DNA from: Bispira polyomma
Lineage: Eukaryota
Direction: 5' to 3'
DNA length: 64,000 nt
Assembly: GCA_965649765.1 (NCBI GenBank)
Contig: OZ287749.1
Span: forward strand, 64,294,001 to 64,358,000
The position numbers were made by a program, and so were the translations under genes. The first letter of the stretch is position 1. Every line of letters starts with the position of its first letter. Positions 26,512-51,545 of the stretch are shown piece by piece. The notes below the pieces were generated by a model. The model saw only the letters and a list, made by a program, of their open reading frames with translations, was not told where the DNA came from and did not search any database.

Positions 26512-27230
26512 TTTAACCTCACCCTTTGGGAGAGGGTATTGTTTTCGGCCTGTGTGTATGTGTGTGGGTGTCTGTGTGTTTGTGTGTACAAACCATTATT
26601 ACACAAAATCTACTGTATCAAATGCATTAAAATTTCCAGATATGTTTTAAAACGGGGACCTCTACATTTTCGCAAAATTTCATATAAATCGGTTGTGAAC
26701 TATAGCTTTAAGACGAGATTTCCCTTTTTATATACAAAACTACAAATCCAGTGTCCCCAAATGACGAAAACGGCAATCTAGCACTAAATCTATCACTACA
26801 CTTACTAGTATACACAATGTAATATATGGAGTATATCAGCCAGAAATTGCCCATTTTAAAATGGTGTTTATATTCAACATAATAACTCTAACTTCATATT
26901 TTAAAATTAAGTACATGCAATAAAATGAGCTATTTCTGACTGCTATACTCCATATATTAACCACAATCGCCGACTTGCTAATCCGAGCTTGAATTCAACA
27001 CATACACTAAAATGGCAATAAATACAAATTTGTAATAAAAAATTAAATGGAAATGGTGTGTATATTAAACATAATAACCCTAACTTCATATTTTAAAGTA
27101 AAGTACACCTTACATTACAATGCCGTTTCTGGCTGATTTACTCCATACATTTACCCCAATCGCCGATTTGTGAGTCCGTGATTAAAGTCCCGGACAAGGT
27201 TTTGCAGTCTCCGACTACTATCTTCTTGTT
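26512..27230 (+). mobile_element. Helentron-associated non-autonomous element (HINE/DINE-1-like)
   Basis: T-run insertion site, 5' TAACCTCACCC..GAGAGGGTATTGTTTTC, (TG)-rich microsatellite, internal ~190-bp tandem duplication, 3' AGTC-TCC-GACT hairpin before CTTGTT. Confidence 0.6.
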
Positions 27231-27945
27231 TTTAAATATTTCTATTTGTATTATTTCACCTATGTCATTCCTGCTATATGTCAACATGTATTATTCAGAT
27301 AGTTGGACTGAATATGTTTATTAGCCCCATGAACCTATTAGCAGCATTAACCTTGGTATAATATTGAAACTGACATCTATATGCAAATAGACAATTCCCC
27401 AGGGACATTATATTACCTGAGTATGTTAGTTACAGTCGCTTAAGTGTTCCCAAGGATCTAATCCAACTGAGATGCCCTTCTATGTCTGAGTTAATTAACA
27501 GCATTTCTTTTCAGGAAATTAAGTGCAGATTGTATTTTATTTTACATTTTTAATGCACCTTATTGAAATGAGGCATCTTTTAAAGCGAAAAAATAGAATC
27601 AATTAATCAATTGAGACGTTAAAAAACAGAACCATGTCAAAAGGAAGAATGTGGGGGTGTATAAAGGAACTAAGGGGGTCTAAACGGGTTTAAAGGGATA
27701 GGTTTTAAGTTTTCTCCTAAAAACAGAAAGTGTTTTGAATGATCTAACCTCAACTGGGAGACTATTGCACAACATAGGGGCAGCAATTGAGAAAGTTCTA
27801 GACCCAGCCTTCTCGGTTAACAGAGGACACAGAAAGTCTCTTTTCTCTCATGAGTTTACTTGAAGAAAGATGAGTAGCAAGGTAAGCGGTATGTTGAGAG
27901 ACAACATCTTTGAAAGTATTCATCTCTCTACCTCAGACCATTATA

Positions 27946-28150
27946 GTGTATAGCACGAACACATAAGGGTTCTGATAATTCAGTTCAATAGTTAGCTTAT
28001 ACCTTAACCCCTAGGGAATGAACCTGACACTAAAACTTCAGGAGCATTTACAAATCAATAACCAATCACATTTATTCCACCAATTGCTAGAGCACAATTC
28101 CCAATTGGGGGGTCATTCATATTGAGACCACATCACATGAAGGAGCACAA
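27946..28150 (+). repeat. Split direct repeat A1
   Basis: Matches 33734-33939 with ~8 substitutions and one homopolymer indel by my manual count. Confidence 0.95.
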
Positions 28151-28259
28151 GTGTGGCAAAATCAAGCTTTTAGGCAGCCATTTTACACAGGATTTTACAT
28201 TTTTAGTCTTTATCTATTTGTGTTTTATATTTTTTAATTGTGCAACAAGTGTTAATACT

Positions 28260-29513
28260 ATGGGACGTTCAAGAAAAACACCATCTGCAGGATCAAAGCC
28301 AGCTAAAGTCAAGAAAACCACAGCGAAGGAAAAAAAGACTACAATTCAGGATCAGGTAAATGGGAGTTTTATATCCGATTTACCCTTCCCCTTGGGTCAA
28401 ACAACACCCCAGAATAGATCAAGTTCAGCCGGATCTGAGTTTAACCAGTATGCAGGCTCCAATCCCATTCACACGGATGTCGGGCAGATCCACACTAATC
28501 AACCACTCGGGTCACTTGCTACTACTACAAACGTGCCGGCAGGTGATACAGCACAAATGATGGAAATCTTGAGGAGATTGGAGCAGTCCAACGCGGACTT
28601 AGCCCGGCGCCTCCACAGGGTGGAATCTCGAGAGTCTCAGAATACTATTCCACGCTCTTACTTCCAGCAGTACCTAACACCGGGGCCACGGGGGGTCACA
28701 TCCCACGTACTCAGCCATTACATACAGTACAGGACTCGCTAGTTCTCCCAAGGGCCACCAACGTTCATGACTATGCCAGAGACGGAATCGTCCCAGGGGT
28801 GGATGCGCTTAAGGCACTACCATATGTACAAGCCATTGTAAATCAACGGATCTCGGAGTATGAAGCTCATGCTCACAGCATCTTCCACCAAGGTAAGCTC
28901 CCCCCCCCCCCCCACTACTCGTCCAAAGTCGGGCCGTTTTAACTATACAGATATTGCATCATCAGACCCTAAGCTTCGTTGGCCTAATGAGGGTTTCGCA
29001 GGGGGAGCTTCTAGAAAGAGACCAGGTTTTGACGACCTAATTTTACCACAGTGGGCGGCAGAGCATCTTTCCAACGCTATGCAGGTTTCGGATCCACTAA
29101 TATTCAGAGAAATGGTACACCAGCTAGTGCTTTCACTTTGCAACGCTTCATCATTACCATGGGAAGTGGTAAGGTCGGCATGGGGCCAGAACATGCATGA
29201 AGTAGAAGAGGGTCGTCTCAGGTGGGACAACACCATGCAATGGTCGCTGAATTGGCTTAGTTTGTCCCAGATGGCCATGGCGACTTCTAACACATCAGGC
29301 AAGCATAACTCAACGGACGGTAAATCCTCAAAAATGATTTGTAAACTCTTCAACAGCGGCAAGTGCTCGCATAATTCTGACCACGGCACATACCGGCATG
29401 TGTGTTGGCATTGTGCCACAGTACTACATAAAGACAGCCAACATCCAGAATTTAAGTGCTATCGTTCCAATTCGTCCAAACAAACCGATAGTAGGACTCC
29501 ACATAACAGCTAG
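28260..29513 (+). pseudogene. gag: Ngaro ORF1, Gag-like protein with C-terminal Cys/His zinc finger; two compensating frameshifts
   Basis: ATG 28260 MGRSRKTP...; coiled-coil-like MMEILRRLEQSNADLARRL; the plausible frame shifts to DGIVPGVDALKALPYVQAIVNQRISEYE..QGK and returns at the C14 run 28900-28913 into KSGRFN..WP..; ends with CKLFNSGKC..HVCWHC..H...C finger, TAG 29511-29513. Confidence 0.85.
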
Positions 29514-30289
29514 GTAATTTACCGACAACCAGTAGATCAGCACAGGGACGTGTATAAGTTGAGCGGAAAGGTGGTAAATAATAAAGATCTGAGAATTAGG
29601 GACAGAAATCATGAGTTTAAATTGTCTAGTAATATTTCGGGAAGTCGGACAGATGTAAACAGTGTTAATGCTACAAATTGGTGTCAAAATGTTGATACTG
29701 GAGAAAGTACAAAAGATGTAATTAAAGTGGTCAATGGTCAATCAGACCAAATAAATGACACATTATTTAAAGGTAGTGATAAAAATAGAAATAGAACAGT
29801 AAATAAGTATTTAAAAGAACTGAATACTATTTGTCATGTAAATGTTAAATCTAGTGCTGGGATGAGAAAAGTACCAAATGTAAACACGAGTGTTGATAAT
29901 GTACTGAATAATGTGAATTTGTGTAATGCAAATGTTACATCTAGTGTTGGGATGAGGAAAATACCAAATGGTAACACAAGTGTTAAAAATGTATTGAATG
30001 ATGTGAAATTAAATATTTCAGGCGCAGACCCAGCAGTATTTACATTTATTAAGCATGATTCCAAGGCCAGTTTTCAGGAAGAACATCATAGCTGTGACAA
30101 CAGATGTGTCAACATATTTCAGGATTTAATGTACACTAACCAAACTAACACTGGAATAAATCATAATGTAAACGACCACAGTACAGGTTTTAAGGCTTAG
30201 ATACAAATATTGATCAGAAACAATCGGATTTTAGTGTCATGGTGGTCACTGCCAAGGTTTCTATGACTAACTGGTGACACTGTCAGGGG
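29514..30289 (+). pseudogene. Asn-rich N-terminal extension of Pol, broken by a frameshift (~30190) and a TGA (30275)
   Basis: Open frame 29514-30200; the RT frame is open from 30194 except for one TGA; contains a 90-bp (30-aa) tandem repeat at ~29830-30010. Confidence 0.55.
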
Positions 30290-32545
30290 ATGGGCAAATA
30301 TTTTCCAATAATACATGTGGGAACAGATAATGCTGAAATTTCGGTGTTTTATTGGCAACAACCAAGTGAAGATCAGGTGCATTATAATTACATAAAATGC
30401 CAGGATTTGGCAGATATTCCACTTCACATTTCTTACACCACGGAACAAGACTTGGCAGTGTACAACCAAATTCAGCATCATGATCAGGAGGCCATGACCT
30501 TGGCTAAGCAAACTTTCTTACTTCATGAAAAAGACAGACAATGCATGTCCCAATTTGGCTATGATTATGCTGATCATATCACTGCTATTATTGACAAGTT
30601 GATAAGTGATGATGCTGATACTTTGGCACACGATGACAGTAATACTGTGGTAAATGGTCATAATACTAACACTATTAACACCAATGTTCATTGTAATGTA
30701 GCACAGAATGCTAGAATCATGTCGTCCGTTTTCTCTGAACATATTTCCGAAATTTCTCCAGTCAGCAAAAATTGTAAGGACAGTAAGGCTAAGGATTTCA
30801 ATCTCCCTGATAAGGATAGGGGATTTATTGCTCTTTCGGCTACAGATTTCACTTTTTATGGCCCAGATAGGGATTTTAAAAAATTTGACAATATTGATGC
30901 GTTTATTGAAGTAGCAAACATTATTAAGGACACAGTCTGTTTCAATTACAAAGGGGCTCGGATTCCTTTGCTCTCTGACTTAAATATCGAGGCTTGGGAA
31001 AAATTGCTCAGCGACTATCCTGATAAGTTACTTTTTCAGTATCTCAAATTTGGATTCCCACTTTCCCTTACTGATTCTGATCAACCTAAAATTACTGAAG
31101 TTGCTAACCACCATTCGGCTCTTCAGCATATAGATGCAGTTGGCCAATACCTGGAAAAAGAATATTCACACGGTGCCATGTTAGGTCCAGTTAATCACGT
31201 TGACAGTGATTTATATCACTGTTCTCCCCTTCTCACACGTCCTAAAGATAACAATAAGCATAGGGTGATTCTGAACTTGTCACACCCTCAGGGTAACTTG
31301 GTCAATGACAAGGTAGACAGGGACTGTTTTGACAGGGTCAGATTTGCTCTTAAGTTCCCATCTATCGACGATATTACAGCCAAAATCAGAGACGCCCCTG
31401 ACGCTAGGATATATAAACTGGACATCGCCAGGGCCTTTCGTAACTTAAGGGTAGACCCAGTCGACGCCATGAAACTAGGCATAAAAGTTAAGGGTAACAG
31501 CTACATTGATCCTGCGGTTGCTTTTGGCTGGGTCCACGGCTCGGCGGCGTTCCAGCGTCTCTCTGACGTCATAGCACATGAAATGGGTAGGTGTGGTCAC
31601 CAGGTGTTCTGTTACATCGATGACTACATTGGTATATCCCCCAGGAACGATGCAGATAGGGCTTTTCGTGATATAACTGATCTGGTGACCTCATTAGGTC
31701 TTCCTAGCGATCAGGACAAGTTATCTCCCCCTAGTACTAAAGTAACGTGTTTAGGCATTGATATTGACTTGAATGAGGGCGTTATCAGCATAACTAAAGA
31801 AAAAATAAAGGAAACCTATGATGCTTGTTTAGAAATAAGTAACAAAACCTGGATCTCGCAAAAAAAATTTCAATCTATTCTAGGTAAGCTTCTCTACATA
31901 CATAAGTGCATGAAACCTGCACGCATTTTTGTCAATAGACTTCTTGCAGCTTTTAGGAATAATCCACTGGTCAAAAGATTTAAGGTTACTGAAGAGATTA
32001 AGGCAGATTTGCAATGGTTTGTCATTTTCTTACCAACTTTTAACGGGGTTACTTACATAGAACCACTAGAACAAACCCAAGGAAATGAAGTGTTCATAGA
32101 TGCTTGCTTTACTGGTTTAGGCGGCATTTATGGCAAACAAGTATATACTGTCCCCTTTCATAATATATATAACCTTAATCTCACAATAGTTCACTTAGAG
32201 ATGTTGAACATCCTGATTGCTCTCAGATTATGGGCAGTCGAATGGGCACACTCTAGAATAAAAATGAACTGTGACAATATGGCAGTAGTGCTGGTTGTCG
32301 GTTTTAGTAAGACTAAGGAAAAATTTCTCGCTCTATGCCTCAGGAGCGAGCCAAATATGCCAGCCAAATATGATATCACACTGGAGGTCCAACACATTAG
32401 GGGCAAAAAGAACGTCATGGCAGACTACCTTTCTAGAATATATTCAGAAAATCCAATAACTGTGGACATTAACAATGATGACTATAAACACCTCATCTGG
32501 AATCATATTCCAGTAGCTTATTTTATTATAAATTTTACATTATAA
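30290..32545 (+). CDS. pol: Ngaro Pol: reverse transcriptase + RNase H (751-aa open frame)
   Basis: RT motifs SPLLTRPK..RVILNLS, YKLDIARAFRNL, FGWVHGSAAFQRLS, YIDD, KLSPPS..CLGI; DIRS-type RNaseH FIDAC..GLGG, IVHLEMLNI, CDNMAVV, HIRGKKNVMADYLSR with all acidic catalytic residues present. Confidence 0.95.
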   Translation: MGKYFPIIHVGTDNAEISVFYWQQPSEDQVHYNYIKCQDLADIPLHISYTTEQDLAVYNQIQHHDQEAMTLAKQTFLLHEKDRQCMSQFGYDYADHITAIIDKLISDDADTLAHDDSNTVVNGHNTNTINTNVHCNVAQNARIMSSVFSEHISEISPVSKNCKDSKAKDFNLPDKDRGFIALSATDFTFYGPDRDFKKFDNIDAFIEVANIIKDTVCFNYKGARIPLLSDLNIEAWEKLLSDYPDKLLFQYLKFGFPLSLTDSDQPKITEVANHHSALQHIDAVGQYLEKEYSHGAMLGPVNHVDSDLYHCSPLLTRPKDNNKHRVILNLSHPQGNLVNDKVDRDCFDRVRFALKFPSIDDITAKIRDAPDARIYKLDIARAFRNLRVDPVDAMKLGIKVKGNSYIDPAVAFGWVHGSAAFQRLSDVIAHEMGRCGHQVFCYIDDYIGISPRNDADRAFRDITDLVTSLGLPSDQDKLSPPSTKVTCLGIDIDLNEGVISITKEKIKETYDACLEISNKTWISQKKFQSILGKLLYIHKCMKPARIFVNRLLAAFRNNPLVKRFKVTEEIKADLQWFVIFLPTFNGVTYIEPLEQTQGNEVFIDACFTGLGGIYGKQVYTVPFHNIYNLNLTIVHLEMLNILIALRLWAVEWAHSRIKMNCDNMAVVLVVGFSKTKEKFLALCLRSEPNMPAKYDITLEVQHIRGKKNVMADYLSRIYSENPITVDINNDDYKHLIWNHIPVAYFIINFTL

Positions 32546-32551
32546 TTTCAG

Positions 32552-33527
32552 ATGTTTTCACTGTTACACAGCCACTTATGACTTCAGCATGGGACAGACT
32601 TAACACTGCTCTTCGCCCAAATACTGCATCAGCATAAAGTAATCAGTTTAAGACATTTTTGGCTTTCAATTGCTTTGTTAGGATTCAGGCAGTTGACACA
32701 CAGTCATTCCTTGCTTTCCTAGAATATTTGGTACAAAATTCTCTTTCTCCTAAGGCTATTGCAAACTATCTTTCTGCTATTAAATTTATGGCTAGGAAAT
32801 TTCATTGGGATTTGGCTATATTTAAAAACAACACGGTTGCTTTATTTATGAGAAGTTTGTCCCATAATTCGCATTTCAGACCTCAGCCTAAAGGTATATT
32901 TAACATTAAACATATGGCTCTTATCTCGCAGGGTTGCGACATACTTTCTGTTCCTGTGCTATATAGGGCCATCTTTCTCCTTGCTTTTTACGGGTTTCTT
33001 CGCATATCCAACATTGCTCCACACTCTAGGGCTACCTTTGACCCCTCCAGACATTTCGTAAGAAAGGATGTCATATTTGGCCATCCAGGGGCCCACATTA
33101 TTCTCAAGTGGGCCAAAAACTTACAGGATAGGTCCCAGTCACATGTAATTCAAATCCCCACGGTTAAGAACACCATTCTTTGCCTTGTGAGGGCCCTACA
33201 GAGATTACTCTCATCTAGACACCTTCCTGACTCTGCACTTTTGTTTGCAGAATCTCACCATCCAAACTTCTCAGTGATAGACACTCATGTGCGTTCTGCA
33301 CTCACTTCTGTGTTGACACATATAGGCATTCCACACAAATCACACACATTCCACACATTCAGAAGGTCAGGTGCCACATATGCCTTTAACAATAACGTTT
33401 TTTGCAAAATATCATGTCTCATGGGCTGTGGAGGTCATCAGCAGTTTGGACCTATCTTCAGAAAACACCACAAGCAGCCTCCACAGTCCCCCTTACCTTT
33501 GCCTCCTCTATTCCCCTAAATTTTTGA
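32552..33527 (+). pseudogene. Tyrosine recombinase (YR) of the retrotransposon; one nonsense codon and one frameshift
   Basis: AFYGFLRISN (catalytic R) and HTFRR (HxxR). After a 1-nt loss in the T-run 33398-33403 the frame reads LQNIMSHGLWRSSAVWTYL (H and catalytic Y) to TGA 33525-33527. In-frame TAA 32635-32637 sits at the expected Tyr of the RPNTASAY motif. Confidence 0.92.
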
Positions 33528-33537
33528 CTTTGGGTTT

Positions 33538-33733
33538 GGGTGTTTTTAAAATCTGGATATTTTAAAATCCTATTATACTATATTTATTGATAACATTATA
33601 TATTTTATTAATATGTACAGTAATAAAACCTCAAACCTAGTTTTATTCCCTTGTTCACATTTGCAAACTTCATTCAACTATGTAGCTCTAGAACTTAACT
33701 TTGGCCTTGACCTTAATACTTCACTAGTAAACT
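33538..33733 (+). repeat. Split direct repeat B1 (contains AATAAA 33622-33627)
   Basis: Matches 34592-34782; abuts A2 to form the circle-junction copy ...AAACTGTGTATAGC. Confidence 0.95.
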
Positions 33734-33939
33734 GTGTATAGCACGACCACATAAGGGTTCTGATAATTCAGTTCAATAGTTAGCTTATACCTTAACCCCT
33801 AGGGAATGAACCTGACACTAAAACTTCAGGAGCATTTACTAATCAATAACCAATCACATTCATTCCACCAATTGCTAGAGCACAATTCCCAATTGGGGGG
33901 GTCATTCATATTGAGACCACATCATGTAGAGGAACACAA
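33734..33939 (+). repeat. Split direct repeat A2
   Basis: Matches 27946-28150. Confidence 0.95.
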
Positions 33940-34591
33940 TAGAAAAGTGCCCACCGCCACCTCGTCTTCCACCAAAATATCCCTTATTAACAATAAGGTT
34001 TTCTCAAGGCACTTGATTAGAAACAACTCTGTTGTTTTGTTAGCAGCAATATGGACTCGTGACCATGTGGAGGTATGGTTCCCCCTTGGTAACTACCCCT
34101 TGGGTGGGATCCAGGGAGGATTATTAGCTCTGCAGGGGGGAACCTTCCTCTGCTAGGCGACTAGGTGCCACAGGTCACGAACCCCCTACATTGCTGCTTA
34201 GGCATTGAAACATAGCACACATTTTCAAGTATATTTATTTTATCATACTTTAGTCTAGCATAAAGGCTTAGGATGAGTTGACAGAGTACTTGCTGACAGG
34301 TACCCATCTAGGGCAATGGCTTGCTGCTAGTTGTATTTGCACATTATATATCTAGGGCAGACTTAAAAGGATTACTGCAGTATGTCCGTTAGATAGTCTC
34401 ATTTTCATATGTAAGAATTATATGTTTTACATTGTTGCCTCCTGCGTGGGGTTTCTCTATATTTATTAATGATATGGTAATAACCAGTAACGTATGGTCA
34501 ATGATGAATTATTGGTTTATACACTGTGGAAGGAACTAGACTTGTTTAATTACGTCTTGTGATATTTCCTTTTATTTTCTGTACTTTGTAC
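33940..34591 (+). ncRNA. Candidate structured non-coding RNA/ssDNA element in the A2-B2 spacer
   Basis: Three nested long stems (34042-34198), three consecutive triloop hairpins (33982-34037) and a CTAG-GCGA-CTAG GNRA hairpin; no credible ORF. Expression is not shown. Confidence 0.45.
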
Positions 34592-34782
34592 GGGTGTTTT
34601 TAAAATATTTTAAAATCCTATTATACTACATGTATTGATAACATTACATATTTTACTAATATGTACAGTAATAAAACCTCAAACCTAGTTTTATTCCCTT
34701 GTTCACACTTGCAAACTTCATTCAACTATGTAGCTCTAGAGCTTAACTTTGGCCTTGACCTTAATACTTCACCAGTGAACTG
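34592..34782 (+). repeat. Split direct repeat B2 (3' terminus; AATAAA 34670-34675)
   Basis: Matches 33538-33733. Confidence 0.95.
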
Positions 34783-41479: not shown

Positions 41480-44400
41480 CTAAATGCAAAGCTACATTCT
41501 CCCCAAGAGGCTTCTGTTGCTGATCTACTTTTTTAGGCTAAAATGCAAAGTATGGTCAGTTTTTTATCACTGGGGCTGTGAGTAAATGTTGCTCCCTAAT
41601 GAGCTAGTTTCTCCAGTACAAACATATGGGATCAGCTAAGAAATTCGGTTCTCTGCAGTATTGCCTACTTTGGTTGTAAACTTACACTTTTAGTATCTAT
41701 ATATTCTGTGTTTATGGGGGTTTTCTACTCATAGTAGAAATACATTTGCAAGTATTATGGCAATATTATGTATATTGTGACAAGTATCCTTGTAATATAT
41801 GGTGTTATATGTACGTTCTTTTAAGAACAAGAACCACATTAATAATGATTTTCAAAGTTTTAGCAAAAAGAATGAAACTCATCCGAAAGATTCTGAAAAA
41901 AAAGTAGAAAACTCCATTAGGCACAACTAAGTGACTTTGTACGAAAAGACCAAGAATCTACAATGTTTTACAAAAATAAAGTTGGTTTCTTTTAGGGGTC
42001 CATTAAAAAGTGTGCCTTTTCATTTGCCAGATTGGGGTTTCAAGACATTTACTAAATGCACCCCATTTGATTTATATTCAATAAATGACAGTAGCTTAGA
42101 TAGCAAGTAGTATTGACTGTCCTTAGACTAAAAGCATTTACGCTGAATTAGTTGTAAGGCAGTATTAAATAGTGTTGTTTATCTATGCTCTTTAAAAATG
42201 TACAAAAATGTAATGTGCACTTGGTGAGCTTTGAAAAAAAAAGTCAATGTCACTGTGTGACTTTAAGAGAGTAGGAAACTGTAATGAGAATGGAGCTTGC
42301 AAATAGATTTTATGAACCCATTGTTACATCAGGGATTCTCAGTAAAGGCTGAATGATTTGTTATTAGCTACTTTTTGTTATTACTACACTATCACCATTA
42401 CATTACCTAAAGCAAGATTATAACGTGTTTAGTCTTATGGTAAATCTTGTGTTTACCTTCACAATGCAGTGACAATGTTTTATCAATAAAAAAGCCTGTG
42501 AGTTTCCATGAAAGGGGGACGCAATGTAATCCCTATATTACCCAAACGCAGCTAAAAACATTATGTGGGATGCCTTTTAATTTTCATTTGAGAATGTGCA
42601 CGCCGAATGTGCCATTCATGTAAATTAATAGTGAAAGCAAAGATAAGGCTTTACAGCAATGTATTTGTGCTTTCTATTGCAATTTAATTTTGCACTAATT
42701 ATAGAAATGAACAAATGAAGTTGCTCAAGGACTTTTAAAAGAAAAATCATTTTGTCATGCAATTTCCAAGGCACACAACACATGCACATAATAACTTGCA
42801 AAAAACATAGTGAATTCTGCATTCACTGCATTCAATTCTGCAGCGTATTGTTAAAATTACTTAACTTAGAGCAAATTAATTGAGCATGGTCAGTTATTGA
42901 ATACGTTTCAAAATAACATTATTTAAAAGGAAAAGACAAATAAGGGCCAATGTACAAATAAAAGATCATAATAATGTGTGTTTTGGTGTCAGTTTTAGAT
43001 CTTGTAAAAACTGGTTATCGTGTTAAGTTACTTAGTATCAGAGTACAAAACATGGCAGACAGCAAACTGGTAATGTAGTTCCAGGAATTTCAATAGCTAT
43101 TGTGTTATGAGACTCAAAACATTCCACAGCAAGTTGCTCAATGTTGGTCTGAGAGAAATTTATTGCTGATATTATAAGATTCATTTGAGTTTTTTTCTTT
43201 TTTGCCAAATTCCCAGACACCCAAACTGTAATTATGTGTGTCCTAGATTGACACCTGAAAAAAATGGCCTCAAAACCAGTAACACTTTGATTATTGGTAA
43301 TTCTGTTAATGGCAACAGTGGCATAGTGTAAAATTTAAATAAACTACTCCCTTAAATTCTCAATATACGTCAAAAAAGTATGCACATTCTGTCTTTATTT
43401 TTACAATAACATTTTATGTGGCTTCGAAAGGGATAGTGTTATTGTGCTTCAATATTTCTGTCATAAAATATGTTCAAAATGACCTTTCAGTATATAAATT
43501 GCATTTTATGACACCATCGTAGTCATCATAACCACCAAAATTAAAAACGATTGTATTACTTGAGATAAACTAAAAGATGAAACATTTCCAATATACAATG
43601 AGTTTGAAATAACAATGAAGAAAATAATCACCAAATATTACCAAAAGAGCTTTTACCTCACCAGAAGAAGATTATATAGTACGAGAGAATTGCATTTTAA
43701 ATCCTCGCATTTACATCACTCTGACTGTACAAGGTTTCTGTTTTACTGAAGTCAATTGCTGATGTTATTACTACATGCATGTATCACCACTGTCAATACC
43801 GTCTGGAGCTTTGGATGTTGGTATGCTTGTCAACCAACTTAAATCACATAGAACAGCACATCAGTCCCCAAAAATAAAAGGATTCTTTCAGGGAGAATAT
43901 TTATTTCTGGTTTATATTTGTCTTTTTATAAGTATTGCATACTTACGATGCTTATGTGCTTTGAAAACTGTGAATGGCTGTACTAGTAAATGGATTGCAT
44001 GGTTTATTTATATTTGAATGGGTTATTGTACTCAGCTAAATTCCATATAGAATGTTAAATTAGTTTTTTGGGTCCTCATGTGTAGTATTGTTTACACATT
44101 TTGCAACATAGATTTGACTCTCATCACCAAATAATAAGCAGATATGGTCTTTGTATGCTAGAGATCATGTATTGGTGCAGAAACTGATTATTGCTAATTA
44201 AGTCTGACATCCCTCAATGCATTTTATTTAATCACACCTGTACATAAGCATTAATGAATGTTAAGATCGATCATAACCAGATCCAATCAAAAAAGCATAT
44301 ATAGACATTACAAATAAATATTACATATGAAATATTTTATTATGAGTCTTGTCATATTAACTGCAACATGGCTTTGGATGAAAAGTGGTATTTATATTCC

Positions 44401-45880
44401 TTCTAAATTAAAATTACATGACAAAATTATTTCCAAGAATGACTTTCACAAAGACATTATTCAGCCTTAACTAGAATGGGCACAAATTATTCATATCATC
44501 TTTTGCTGTGAGTTTCATATATAAACTATTCTTATATATTTAACTATCATCGATACATGGAGATCAGTTCCCATCTGTCTAAGAATATCTATATTCTGAT
44601 ATCAATAACCTCGACACTAAATAGGTCTCAACTCCCAATGGTTGTCCACATACATTTAGAAATGCGCAAAGAAACAGTATTATAGCAGCTGCCTTATGTA
44701 GCTTTTTAGTTTTCGGTATAGTAATAGAAATACAATGTGCTCCCCAATACCAAATGCTAGTGCATTAGCTATAGCAATATAGACGTTCTATCCTCTTTAT
44801 TAGACAAAAAAAACAGTTATTGCCTGTTGTTTTAATATCCTTGACATGTCAACAATTATTAGCGACATTTGCATGTATAGACACACATCTCCTCTAGTCA
44901 TTTATATGCTTCCTTTCTGTTTTTTAACTCCCCCAAAGTAATAACCCCTTGTTTTATGGCTGTTGTTGTAAATGAATCCCCCCAAATAGCACTAAAAGTC
45001 CTCAAACATATCTTGATATTAAGGCAAGACTTTACGTCAATCTCATCCAAAGCATTACATATTTTGTCTTCACAGACATTATAAATTAATTATGTTATAT
45101 TTGTTTTTTGATTTATGCCCACATAAATACATTGAACTATTTAAATTAGATTTAAATATTTAAAAAAAATACAAAACAATTCAGAAATGTAGATTAACTT
45201 TGGGAGTTCATTTTGACAAATATCATGGTAAGTGTTCTGTTTTTTTCATTAGATCATATGTGAGCAACCCTGGATCCTTAATAAGTTAACACACCCTTCA
45301 AACCCCCCCCCCCCATCCCCCATCCCCTCCCCCTAAGAAATGATATGTAGGATTTGATAGTATTACTATACAGTAACATGTATTTCATGTACCAGTTATG
45401 CATACTTCAAACTTTCTGTACATAAAAGTCCATGAAATATGTTTTCATAGAATGGTGTATTTCTATCCAGATCTATATATAGGACATTGCCTAAAAAGGT
45501 GGATTAACACATACAAATGCTGTATTTTGTTTGTTAATATAGTCAATGTTTTAATGTATCAGTATCTAAGTTATATATGCTTATGCTTATATGCTTATAT
45601 AGCGCTTAATATACTAAGCGCTTAACAGTAAATGTAAACAATTTGCATAAATATTAATAATACGCCTTTCTGAATAAGTATGTCTTTAGATCTTTTTTTG
45701 AACACCAGTATAGAGTTTTGAGCTATATATATTTAAATGTAACAATAAAACTAGGCTTAAACCTAAGGTTCTGATCCATCCACTAACCCTAAAACAAATA
45801 CCACAATTAATGAGATATCATATATCATAAGAAATGTTCTTTCTTTAAGTGCCCATCTCTATTGAATTGTATCATAAAAG
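41480..45880 (+). repeat. Old tandem segmental duplication, copy 1 (pairs with 46225-49615)
   Basis: Colinear conserved blocks: 41482/46227, 41860/46617, 43731/47537, 44160/48090, 44730/48595, 45215/49077, 45760/49493, 45845/49577. Confidence 0.85.
45560..45715 (-). mobile_element. L2-clade LINE extreme 3' fragment
   Basis: Reverse strand encodes KKDLKTYLFRKAYY*, followed by an AAGCGCT-type tail; absent from duplication copy 2. Confidence 0.6.
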
Positions 45881-46224
45881 TCATTTAGGGGTTAATTTCT
45901 GCAATATAAATTTGGTTACTTTTTTATGACCAGCATGCACTAGGTAGATTTGATTATTTGAAACAAAAACATTGTTGTTATATGTATTATATAAATTTCT
46001 AGTTGAATTAACGAAGCAATATGTATGCATTTTAAATGTGATTTTTCGTATATCAAGATTGGTTTTATTCATTACATACATTCTTACATTGACATAGTTT
46101 TTAATGAAGAAAGACTCTTTGATTAATCATTTCATTTATGATTTAAAATCCCATATCTCTACTTCAAAAGTCTATAATGTCACATGCTACGTTGATTTAA
46201 CAGCAACAATAGAGATAGCTCCAT

Positions 46225-49200
46225 TCAAATGCAAAGCTACATTGTCCCTAAGGGGCTTCCATTGCTGATCTACTGTTTCAGGCTAAAATGCAAAGTCTAG
46301 TTTTTATCATTGCAAGTTTTTATCATTGCAACTGTGTCTGTAAATGTTCCCCTTTAATGAGGTAGCTTCTCCAGTACAAACATATGGGATCAGCTGAAAA
46401 TGTGCTCTCTGAAATACGCATTTCTTTTGTTGTAAAGTCATACTTTTAACAACTATTTTCTGTGCTTTTCTGTCCTTATGGAGTTGTCTTCTTATAATAA
46501 TAATACTTTTGCGTGCATATTGTAAAATGGATTACATATTTCATAATAATATTTTATAAGTATAGTATTCATGATATTTTATACAAGAACAACATACATA
46601 ATAATTGCAAGTATTTTAGCAAAAAAAAACAACACTTATCACGAAAGACTCCGGAATAAAAAAAGTGGTAAACTGCATTAGGCCCAACTAAGTGACTTTG
46701 AATGAAAAGAGCAAGGCCCTACAATGTTTTACGATAATTAAGTTAGCAACTTTTCGGGGTCTATTAAAAAAGCGTGCCTTTTCATTTGCTAGGTTTAAGT
46801 TTTTGGAGGTTTACTAAGTGCAGCCCATTTTAAGATTAAAGAGTACTTGAGAATTGTAGCTAGATCTCTGCCATTATTGTGTTAATTGTATTTGGTATTG
46901 ACATATGACAAGGTGTTATGTCAATCTGCATACTGATATTACACCGCTCACATGGGAAGTTTTGTAATATCATCAGGAACAGAGATAGCTAACCGATATT
47001 ATTGCTTCCTTCACATCTATATTCAGGAAAATTCTTATTTTTTGTTATGGCTAGAGTTGTATAAATACATATATTTTTTAGTGTTTTGTCGATCATACTG
47101 TAATCTATGTGTGTCAATAAACTCATACAAGTACATTTGTAGGGTATGTATATTTTGCAGGTAGCTATTACCATGATATCCATGGTACACTGGATAAAAA
47201 CATGTCTTGAAATCCTATAACATGAAGACATACAATAATTCCAAAGCCATATAATATATAGGTGATAATATGGGTGATATTTTGAAATCATTAATATCAC
47301 CACTCATTACTAATATTTCTAATTAATGACAAGTATAAGACTCTGTGAAAACTCTAAGCACTAGGATTGATATAGAGACCCATAAATTAACAGACCCGCA
47401 ATTTACATAGAAGATTCTACACTCATTTTAAAATAAAAGAGTTTCTTTAATGTAAAGTTATAACAACATGTATACGTACTATTGTTCCATACTTTTTTGT
47501 TTATTTCCTTAAAATAACACATCACTCCGACTTTAAAAGGTTTCTGGTTTACTGAAGCCAATTGCTGATGTTATTACTACATGATATCACCAGCTGTCAA
47601 TACCGTCGGGAGCTTCTGATCTTGGTATGCTTGTCAACCTACTTAAATCACATAGAACAGCACATCAGTCCCCAAAAATAAAAGGATTCGTTTAAGGGCA
47701 AAACATTTCAGTCTGGTTTGTACTTTTGATAAGTATTAAACTTATATCATATAATATATATATTTTTTATTAATTCTATTGTAGGTTTTAAATTTGCATG
47801 TGTTGCTTTGTGCTCTGTATTGATGTGTTGTGATAAAAGGACGAATGTTTGTACTATTAAATTTTATTAGATAATTTATCGCACAGCACGACCCAAGAGA
47901 GGTCTGCTAGTGCAGCTATACCAGTAGAAAGTTGTTGGCTACCTTAACCCCTGGTGGTAGATTTGACCAAATGAGTCACTCTGCCCATCTACCTAATACT
48001 CACCAATCAGATTACTTATCCTCTAAAAATTTACCTTCAAGATTGGAGGCTTCCATTTTAGAAAAGAATCAGGCCTAAAAAATGTTTGTTAGATGTTATG
48101 TGTTGGTGCAGAGACTGGTCATTCCTGAATAAGTTTGATATCCCCCAATGCATTTCATTTAATCACACCTGAACAAAAGTATTAATGAATCTTAATATAG
48201 ACAATTAACAGATCCATATTTCAAAAAAAGCATATTTAGATATTACAAATAAATTTTAAGATTAAATATTTTATTATGATCCTTGTCATGTTAACTGCAA
48301 CATGGCATTTGACAATACATACTATTTATATTCTTTTCAGAAAAAAACTATGCAACAAAGTGGAATTATTTCCTCAAAGACATTCGTCTGCCCTAAGAAC
48401 ATGCACAAATGATTCAATTTAAGATTTGCTGAAAATTCCATAGTTAAAGTAGTCCTTAAATTAACCCTTAACATAGTTATCGATTTGATTTAGCAATGGT
48501 TATCCATACATATTTAGAAATCCCAAAGATAAAATGATCAAGCACCGTTTTTTAAATATTTTAGTTTTCTAAATTAAGCCTGGTATTAGTATTACAAATA
48601 CAATGTGCTCTCTAATATCGGATACTTGTGAATTAGCGTTATCAATACAGACTTTCCATCCTTCATGTGGGACATAAAACCAGTCAGTTCCGATCTTTGC
48701 TGCTGTTTGAATATCCTTGACATGTCAACCATTATTAGACACATTTACATGTATACACACACAACTCCTACAGTCATGTATATGCTTCCTTTCTGTTTTC
48801 CAAACTCCCCCAAAGCAATAACCTCTTATTTTATGTCTGTTGTTGTAAATGGATCTCCCTAACATAGCACTAAATGTCCTCAAACAACTGTTGATATTGA
48901 GGCAAGTTTTTATGTATATCTCACGTAAAGCATTACATTTTTGTCTTCGCATAAACAAATCTTTTCTGAAATCTTCATAGGTGCTTTTGAATTCATGTCT
49001 ACATAAATATGTTAATAACTGGGTTTTTTAATGTGATTCAGCAGTTTATCAAAACATTAGGTTTGGGAATTTATTGTGACAAAAATTATGGTAAGCATTT
49101 TGTTTCTCATCCGATCTATGCGACTAGCCCTGGATCCATACATTAATGGGGCCTTCAACAGGCCCCCAGAACTGATACCTAGTATTTTTGAATTTGACTA

Positions 49201-51159: not shown

Positions 51160-51545
51160 TCAAACTTTTCTCCTACCTTGCTACTCGTCTTCTGTTTAGT
51201 AGCTTCAAGAGAGAAAAGATACTTTCTGTTTCTTCCGTTAAGACTGCCAAGAGGGCTCGATCTAGAGCTTTCTCAATCGATGCCCTGATTTTATGGAATT
51301 GTCTCCCAGTTGAGCTAAGATCACTATAAACACTTTTGGAGTTTAAGATAAAACTTAAAACCTATCGCTTTAAATTCACTTACCCCCTTAGTTCCCTCTC
51401 TGTATACCCCCCCCCCCCCCCATTTTCTTATGACAGGCTATGTTTTCCGGTCTCCTCAATTTGTTACTTGATTCTGTTGTTGCGCATTACAAGATGGCGC
51501 GCAACAATAATGCATGTTAAAAGTGCAAAATACAATACAATCTGA
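51160..51545 (+). mobile_element. L2-clade LINE 3' fragment
   Basis: SRAFSIDALILWNCLPVELRSL*..EFKIKLKTYRF matches the L2 ORF2 terminus RAFSxxAPxLWNxLPxxxR..FKxxLKTxLF; ends in an (AATAC)n tail. Confidence 0.8.

Follow-up and report, generated by a model that had tools for sequence, protein, structure and literature searches.

Conserved, phase-matched splice sites predict a Gag–tyrosine recombinase fusion in Ngaro-like retrotransposons of Bispira polyomma

A decayed Ngaro-like element

The window, a stretch of 64,000 nucleotides of the Bispira polyomma genome (contig OZ287749.1, positions 64,294,001 to 64,358,000), contains a decayed Ngaro-like retrotransposon at 27946-34782, with all its features on the + strand, that holds a predicted splice donor and a predicted acceptor, both in phase 1. 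From the left end, it starts with the split direct repeat A1 (27946-28150; 96% identical to 33734-33939), sister copies beginning at 27946-47. The coding part of predicted exon 1 (28260-28892) corresponds to the N-terminal half of Gag: a basic N-terminus, a conserved coiled coil (28557-28634) identified in aligned exon-1 peptides and structure models, a low-complexity linker, and a helix pair reaching the donor. The C-terminal half of Gag (28893-29513), delineated from the frames and a structure model, comprises a helical core and a Cys/His finger and closes with a TAG. The segment 29511-29532 covers this stop (TAG followed by G), which shares its frame with pol, the onset of pol and then an invariant CYAG (29529-32), a candidate readthrough signal or second acceptor. 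The pol ORF (29514-32545) encodes a reverse transcriptase together with an RNase H (RVT_1, E 5.7e-8; RVT_3), and is followed by predicted exon 2 (32552-33527), a tyrosine recombinase (YR) with a SAM-like domain and the catalytic R, K, HxxR, H and Y residues visible. Repeats B1 (33509-33734; 89-96% identical to B2), A2 (33734-33939; matching A1) and B2 (34563-34782; matching B1) complete the element, B2 forming its right end.

The order gag, RT/RNase H, YR on one strand and the A1...B1A2B2 split direct repeats, with internal repeats downstream of YR, are those of Ngaro-like elements. The available parts of PMC8547959, PMC9210276, PMC4157794 and PMC3783388 describe the same A1-[gag, RT/RH, YR]-B1A2B2 layout, the lack of a methyltransferase domain and, as in clade 1 below, a short -1 pol/YR overlap; neither an intron nor a Gag-YR fusion is described in those parts. 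A methyltransferase domain after RNase H, expected in PAT-like and DIRS1-like elements, has no Pfam match, and pol is too short to hold one, in intact relatives ending ~35 residues past the RNase H match (RVT_3 reaches 980 of 1015). The inverted terminal repeats with an internal complementary region of DIRS1-like elements are absent, only direct repeats being found, and no SGNH hydrolase ORF was seen in the element. Layout and domain content point to a Ngaro-like member of the DIRS order, and would also fit a PAT lineage with a lost methyltransferase; such a loss is reported in the available part of PMC4157794.

The window copy is dead. Exon 1 is frameshifted near 28630-28650 and the YR frame hits a stop at 32635-37, 28 codons into the recombinase, so this copy cannot produce the fusion discussed below. 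Further frameshifts are found in a poly-C run (28900-13), near 30197 in pol, and near 33400 in YR.

Conserved splice sites in gag and after pol

A phase match between a donor and an acceptor has a 1 in 3 probability of occurring by chance, and the weight of the argument therefore rests on a comparison of 30 families of the B. polyomma genome, 15 in each of two clades, whose silent sites are near saturation. These families share ancestry, and their counts are non-independent trials. Conservation among ten sister copies, 92-97% identical, was set aside as mere descent.

The preliminary description placed the end of the first exon at 28892, in phase 1, with GTAAGC from 28893. This is borne out, the cut falling after the first base of a codon in the gag piece 28547-28942. 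The site (28890-28898) matches MAG|GTRAGT and is conserved beyond coding need. Donor-like sites matching 8/9 positions occur at 0.23 per kb in the window, and only two lie on the + strand of the element. AG|GTA is kept in all 29 families having gag among the 30 representatives of the two clades. In clade 1, where silent sites are 34% identical against 28% at saturation, the Gly codon of the donor is GGT in 13/13 families, the sole invariant codon among 134 conserved fourfold columns, other Gly columns displaying GGT at 0-71%; the adjacent CAA and AAG codons are also invariant. In clade 2, which shares 45% nucleotide identity with clade 1, this codon is GGT in 14/15 families. The codon preceding it encodes five different amino acids, with all codons ending in A, and the next codon always begins with A. 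A further family has a 9-nt insertion ahead of the donor that leaves the phase unchanged. Counting against splicing, the +5 G is missing from the clade 2 donors in 11/15 families. In the structure model of a related family, helix 192-214 ends at the donor and a disordered linker follows.

At the other end, the acceptor region (32512-32551) consists of a T/A-rich, AG-free run followed by TTTCAG. As proposed earlier, the AG (32550-51) stands behind the pol stop TAA (32543-45), 6 nt past it, and the two bases after it finish a codon; beyond the junction the frame reads VFTVTQPLMTSAW..., which is that of YR. The predicted intron (28893-32551) spans 3,659 nt; its excision would take out the whole of pol along with gag's C-terminal half, in which the Cys/His finger lies. 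Across 62 copies the predicted intron length is 2,823-3,718 nt. The acceptor AG is found at a constant distance from the YR domain in 30/30 representatives (20/30 for the next best offset) and in phase 1 in 29/30; the exception (L053) is off by one base because that copy is broken. Positions -6 and -5 are T in 30/30 families and position -3 is a pyrimidine in 29/30, while the residue encoded by the acceptor bases varies (S in 19, T in 4, V in 3, P in 2, A in 1 and a stop in 1). The interval -16 to -3 is free of any other AG in 30/30 families, as compared to 37% of control windows; a pyrimidine-rich, AG-free run leads to a 3' YAG. A candidate branch site near -26 is present in sisters and altered in the window copy; this signal, which overlaps conserved pol codons, is found in 21/30 families versus 11.2 in shuffles.

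The check put forward with the initial proposal, whether sister families keep donor, acceptor and phase, comes out positive in 29-30 of 30 families, in both clades and in distant relatives. A first metagenome scan returned no match. In the metagenome contigs found, TT-N-YAG occurs in phase 1, 47-59 nt upstream of a conserved RP-type motif, in 8/8 cases, and in the sole contig with gag a donor, again in phase 1, follows the same helix pair. Among distant YR proteins, at most 64% identical to those of B. polyomma, a translated footprint of the acceptor is observed at the exact offset in 42 of the 60 scorable, and at other offsets in 0-12 of 60. At the sequence level, these comparisons establish the donor and acceptor sites, their phase, and a nucleotide conservation exceeding the needs of the protein.

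Expression of the recombinase

The fusion by splicing of the Gag N-terminal half to YR, as first suggested for this element, finds support in the conserved donor, acceptor and phase of the sister families, and YR is probably expressed from such a spliced mRNA. Splicing out an intron of 3-3.7 kb would yield a Gag-N/YR protein of ~460-565 residues (~535 in the family of the window copy), to which exon 1 would contribute a start codon as well as a coiled coil capable of self-association. Only part of the transcripts would be spliced. The unspliced RNA would serve as genome and direct the synthesis of Gag, as well as of Gag-Pol by recoding, presumably stop readthrough in clade 1 and -1 frameshifting in clade 2.

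YR lacks a conserved start codon of its own, as seen from the aligned frames. The ATG at 32578-32580, offered as an alternative start, is indeed in the YR frame but is not general, being present in 6/30 families. Initiation of YR at its own codon, an internal ATG or a stop-start reinitiation at the pol stop, on a full-length or separately initiated RNA, would agree with an ATG at codon 9 in 6/30 families, with the overlap of an ATG and a TGA pol stop in 6/8 copies of one large family and 1/2 of another, and with Met at codon 31 in 15/15 clade 2 families. However, 21/30 families lack an in-frame ATG through codon 9 past the acceptor, or ahead of the conserved first-helix residues (A12 and Y28 are invariant in 26/26), and in five clade 1 families the first ATG comes no earlier than codon 68, within the SAM-like domain or past it. 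As it also leaves the conservation of donor and acceptor unexplained, this route is highly improbable.

A published proposal for recombinase production in tyrosine-recombinase retrotransposons is a programmed -1 frameshift between pol and YR (Poulter and Butler 2015, as quoted in the available part of PMC13003380), to which a conserved splice would be a different answer. A Pol-YR or Gag-Pol-YR protein made in the short pol/YR overlap is very unlikely here. All 15 clade 1 families have YR in the -1 frame relative to pol, with a short overlap, and in five of them, including that of the window, a slippery-type heptamer lies inside the overlap; pol and YR even share one frame in three single copies (L050, L052, L058). 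Yet these same-frame copies make up just 2/6 and 1/4 of their families, 10/15 clade 1 families are without a heptamer in the overlap, and three overlap by only 4 nt. Clade 2 families place YR in frame 0, +1 or -1 relative to pol, several of them without any overlap; the distance from the stop to the AG ranges from 6 to 21 nt and the heptamer is found in 0/15 families, yet the AG is constantly in phase 1. Neither clade exhibits a common fold at the pol/YR junction, unlike the gag/pol junction of clade 2, an internal control where a run-of-A heptamer and a hairpin occur in 13/15 families (alifold -11.85). The frozen codons in mid-gag would also be left unexplained by a frameshift.

A very unlikely third possibility is that the acceptor is real but pairs with another donor in a short 5' leader, or that the sites have a different role at the RNA level, for instance in export, in packaging or in U1-type protection against premature polyadenylation. 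The window has a second donor-like site at 28356, and for plant Copia elements the available part of PMC5580714 reports that U1 binding has other roles. Sites of the 28356 type are nevertheless found in only 2/14 clade 1 families and in phase 0, whereas the mid-gag donor is the only one retained in all clade 1 families compared; both conserved sites are in phase 1, and YR can obtain a start codon only from a coding exon.

Spliced or intron-less products of the Gag-N/YR type were searched for in several data sets. Three read runs whose kind is unrecorded, from one study and at most two samples, assembled to contigs, display a cover as even as that of DNA; no joint falls at the predicted sites among the 11 listed on the window element or among 15 of the 63 on the largest related family. 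The junction probe suggested earlier fits the window copy and mismatches most sisters, the first exon-2 bases differing in 8/10 copies of the family. In the genome, exact patterns for the two clades were used: seven junction-shaped ones gave 1, 0, 0, 11, 15, 19 and 8 matches, and 0/54 continue into YR. Many of the 54 are gag copies with altered donors, so the patterns do find exon-1 ends. One match (L136) contains gag and pol only. Of 80 exon-1 ends sampled from 300 matches for odd frame lengths, 80 run on into gag, AG|GTA being intact in 71, and the 600 genomic pattern matches listed contain no open frame of 470-590 codons. Spliced RNA may simply escape copying, leaving no intron-less copies. 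Among proteins from gene calls that do not splice, which makes this negative a weak one, no fused form of greater length was found (0 of the first 150 representatives with exon-1 sequence), and the 120 YR-type proteins listed are all shorter than 380 residues.

The Gag N-terminal half and known systems

In retroviruses and errantiviruses, env is a third ORF located in the 3' exon of an RNA that is spliced once, and Gag-Pol is made by readthrough or -1 frameshifting on unspliced RNA. The predicted YR would likewise be a third ORF within a 3' exon, with Gag-Pol coming from unspliced RNA. It differs from env, which has a short leader, in being an integrating enzyme that would keep 135-240 Gag residues. 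A conserved splice also poses a control problem, because a retroelement can copy itself only if most of its RNA stays unspliced. In plant Ty1/Copia elements, conserved alternative splicing produces a short GAG RNA and controls the balance between structural and catalytic proteins, according to the available part of PMC5580714; it yields Gag alone, as opposed to the Gag-N/recombinase fusion predicted here.

Taken jointly, these features make it conceivable, as a tentative generalization, that animal Ngaro elements are organized in three tiers, as retroviruses are: Gag from unspliced RNA, Gag-Pol by recoding, with readthrough and frameshifting switched between lineages, and a spliced Gag-N/recombinase that a trimeric coil loads into Gag assemblies. 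The clade 1 donor may also use another phase-1 acceptor where pol begins, which would turn Gag-N into a targeting leader shared by both enzymes; RNA folding after the clade 1 gag stop gave no common structure. If splicing is confirmed, YR ORFs without a start codon would become exons, the real protein being ~200 residues longer, and an element without a protease or a Pol-fused integrase would have a route to bring its integrating enzyme to the cDNA.

The part of Gag that splicing would remove is not called a capsid fold, because no clear match came out of fold searches run on the Gag model (best Z 5.4, rmsd 5.0, 90 aligned residues; viral E 0.015). The retained part harbors the coiled coil, which corresponds to helix 75-108 in the structure model of a related family and whose R-h-x-x-h-E motif is present in 21 of 23 aligned exon-1 peptides, within their first coil. 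A three-copy model of the exon-1 coil scored 0.68 versus 0.02 for the best control, with a contact agreement of at least 87% and a pLDDT of at least 76 across runs. The score mark is reached by 21/30 microbial homodimers and 0/23 single chains, and in eukaryotes by 17/29 homodimers (7/16 in animals) and 0/30 single chains, a calibration that is two-copy, unlike this three-copy model, and that coiled coils may pass through memorization by the predictor. Judging from these models, the coil could well let the recombinase associate with oligomers of Gag and thus accompany the cDNA. LINE-1 ORF1p carries no fused integrating enzyme and, no match in sequence or fold to the Gag N-terminal half having been shown, is an analogy only; as described in the available part of PMC5940361, it too has a basic N-terminus and, behind it, a coiled coil bearing RhxxhE trimerization motifs.

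The element and its copy in the window

The studied element occupies positions 27946-34782 of the window (+ strand). Its genes are gag, pol (RT and RNase H) and that of a tyrosine recombinase (YR), and it carries the split direct repeats A1 (27946-28150), B1 (33509-33734), A2 (33734-33939) and B2 (34563-34782). Pol ends ~35 residues past RNase H, so that a methyltransferase would not fit, and by the feature lists in PMC4157794 and PMC8547959 the element is Ngaro-like. A search of the 1.04-Gb genome returned at least six further full-length copies at 94-96% identity. The window copy is dead: frameshifts occur in a poly-C run and near 28630-28650, 30197 and 33400, and the YR frame meets a stop at 32635-32637, 28 codons past the proposed acceptor. 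Any claim of splicing can therefore apply to the family only. The poly-C run (28900-28913), of variable length and directly following the donor, disrupts the gag frame in most family copies (sisters L002-L010).

YR retrotransposons are very abundant in this genome: a single YR query gave 11,898 first-look candidates, and the numerous identical copies seen in several families point to recent activity. The window also holds a dispersed repeat in opposite orientations (27676-27895 and 51163-51387), one copy of which adjoins the left side of the element, MITE-like nested inverted repeats (26820-27151), and a diverged duplication (41800-49000; ~3.9 kb spacing, pieces at 75-92%).

Conservation of the donor and acceptor

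The preliminary description proposed that a phase-1 donor in gag (28892|28893) is joined to a phase-1 acceptor after the pol stop (AG at 32550-32551), fusing an N-terminal part of Gag to YR; its coordinates and phases proved entirely correct on re-reading of the window. For comparison, 70 loci chosen for their spread of identity (10 of 30 rows of one genome search, 40 hand-picked ones of 150 in a second, and 20 of 150 in a third) were grouped into 30 families at a cut-off of <85% YR nucleotide identity. These form two clades, ~45% identical to each other, clade 1 including the family of the window. Between families, identity at the third positions of conserved fourfold codons is 33-34%, vs 27-28% at saturation; silent sites are thus near saturation and letters in common do not reflect simple descent, the families being nonetheless related.

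Gag was found in 29 of the 30 families, and all 29 display AG|GTA at the same gag position (the GT copy was used for one family holding both GT and GC copies). The donor glycine codon is GGT in 13/13 aligned clade 1 families, an alignment that omits a gag-less family and the window row, misaligned at the poly-C run but read directly as GGT. No other of the 134 conserved fourfold columns in gag, pol and YR has an unchanging codon; the Gln and Lys codons on either side do not vary either, nor does an unrelated Gln column in pol. The clade 2 codon is GGT in 14 of 15 families, ranking third of 141 columns after two belonging to the gag/pol hairpin, and the codon before it always ends in A, although five amino acids are represented there. 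These donors have G at +5 in only 4/15 families and T at +6 in most. In one further family the donor is preceded by three additional codons, with the phase kept. To note, a tandem duplication within gag of locus L064 (G000:C9:6583069-6591624) places two donor sites in one 595-codon open frame.

The acceptor AG lies 86 nt upstream of a fixed YR-domain point in 30/30 family representatives, the runner-up offset reaching 20/30; the anchor was moved by hand for two of the 70 loci, L037 (a 9-nt alignment slip) and L053 (a representative copy that is off frame by one base). T occupies -6 and -5 in all 30 families, and 29 have a pyrimidine at -3. When the codon whose last base is the A of this AG is translated in the YR frame, it has six different outcomes, a stop among them, indicating that the constraint acts on bases. 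All 30 representatives are free of any other AG from -16 to -3, vs 476 of 1290 control windows. A branch-like motif is present 20-31 nt upstream in 21/30 (11.2 in shuffles, 0/1000 reaching 21); it overlaps conserved pol codons, and at this site the window copy is unlike the sister copies.

Outside this genome, eight of eight metagenome contigs, two of which are nearly identical and which by name prefix come from four assemblies, exhibit a phase-1 TT-N-YAG 47-59 nt upstream of a conserved motif, and the single contig with gag has a phase-1 donor directly after the same helix pair as in the exon-1 peptides of this genome. Among 269 database YR proteins, 60 reach far enough upstream for scoring, and 42 of these have an NYA-encodable residue followed by one with a G-starting codon at the exact offset, as compared to 0-12 at twelve neighbouring offsets.

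The family comparison (donor 29/29, acceptor 30/30) supports the spliced reading well, and it is likely, as judged from sequence, that relatives of the element make the Gag-N/YR fusion. No intron-less genomic copy was found in the genome among 54 junction-pattern matches and 80 sampled exon-1 ends.

Possible frameshifting and readthrough, and the YR start

According to Poulter and Butler 2015, as quoted in PMC13003380, the Ngaro YR ORF shares a -1 overlap with pol, and ribosomes probably enter it by frameshifting. This standing guess, which the spliced fusion, if true, would overturn, fits the -1 pol/YR geometry of 15/15 clade 1 families and the slippery-type heptamer inside the overlap in five of them, the family of the window included, but the overlap shrinks to 4 nt in three. 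In clade 2, the YR frame relative to pol is 0, +1 or -1 (three families with early pol stops being unscored) and no slippery heptamer was found at pol/YR in the 15 families; the alifold energy of the junction is 0.0 in both clades (13 ungapped representatives each). Single copies at L050, L052 and L058 have pol and YR in one frame through small indels, their sisters not.

At gag/pol, 13/15 clade 2 families (L072-L091, gag end) harbor a run-of-A heptamer, a spacer and a 7-bp hairpin (alifold -11.85, vs 0.0 at pol/YR), by its sequence a textbook -1 frameshift signal, which suggests that the two clades recode Gag-Pol differently. In clade 1 (L002-L070; window 29511-29532), Gag ends with TAG-G in the pol frame in 14/14 families with a gag end, and a CYAG 18-21 nt past the T of the stop is invariant in 13/13 representatives, its AG in phase 1 of the pol frame. 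This region has no common fold and little pyrimidine tract; the CYAG may act as a signal for readthrough or, alternatively, as a second acceptor paired with the mid-gag donor.

An ATG at 32578 (codon 9), previously put forward as an alternative YR start, is present in 6/30 families. In three others, some copies carry an ATG slightly upstream; 21 families have none up to codon 9, the exceptions being one copy (codon 15) and two copies fused to pol. All 26 aligned YRs share A12 and Y28 (25 share P22 and T24), and the Pfam SAM-like match begins at residues 5-21. All clade 2 families have a Met at codon 31, where a start would lose the first helix.

For DIRS-order elements, no report of a spliced Gag-YR emerged from literature searches or from the portions consulted of PMC7192593, PMC9341512, PMC4157794, PMC3783388, PMC8547959, PMC9210276, PMC6681497, PMC4495291 and PMC5633606; an earlier mention may exist in the original descriptions of Ngaro, in the review of 2015, in Repbase or in supplements.

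Predicted content of exon 1

Exon-1 peptides of both clades have in common a coiled coil and, terminating at the donor, a helix pair. In a full-Gag model (22-row alignment, mean pLDDT 59), helices 75-108 and 185-214 precede a disordered linker, starting at 216, that contains the donor position; the confident core (262-344) would be removed by the predicted splice together with the finger. RhxxhE, a trimerization motif according to PMC5940361, occurs in the first coil of 21/23 exon-1 rows. Three copies of the coil yield a model score of 0.68 vs 0.02 for the best control (runs agreeing on ≥87% of contacts, pLDDT ≥76), this three-copy job lying outside the calibration (21/30 homodimers and 0/23 single chains in microbes, 7/16 in animals). 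The model supports self-association of exon 1, not loading into particles, and a role of exon 1 in tethering the recombinase is marginally favored.

The clade 2 Gag N-terminus (L073-L089, L094) displays a zinc-binding-like motif, CxxC...H...C, at the place of the basic tail of clade 1; this motif would be retained in the Gag-N/YR fusion.
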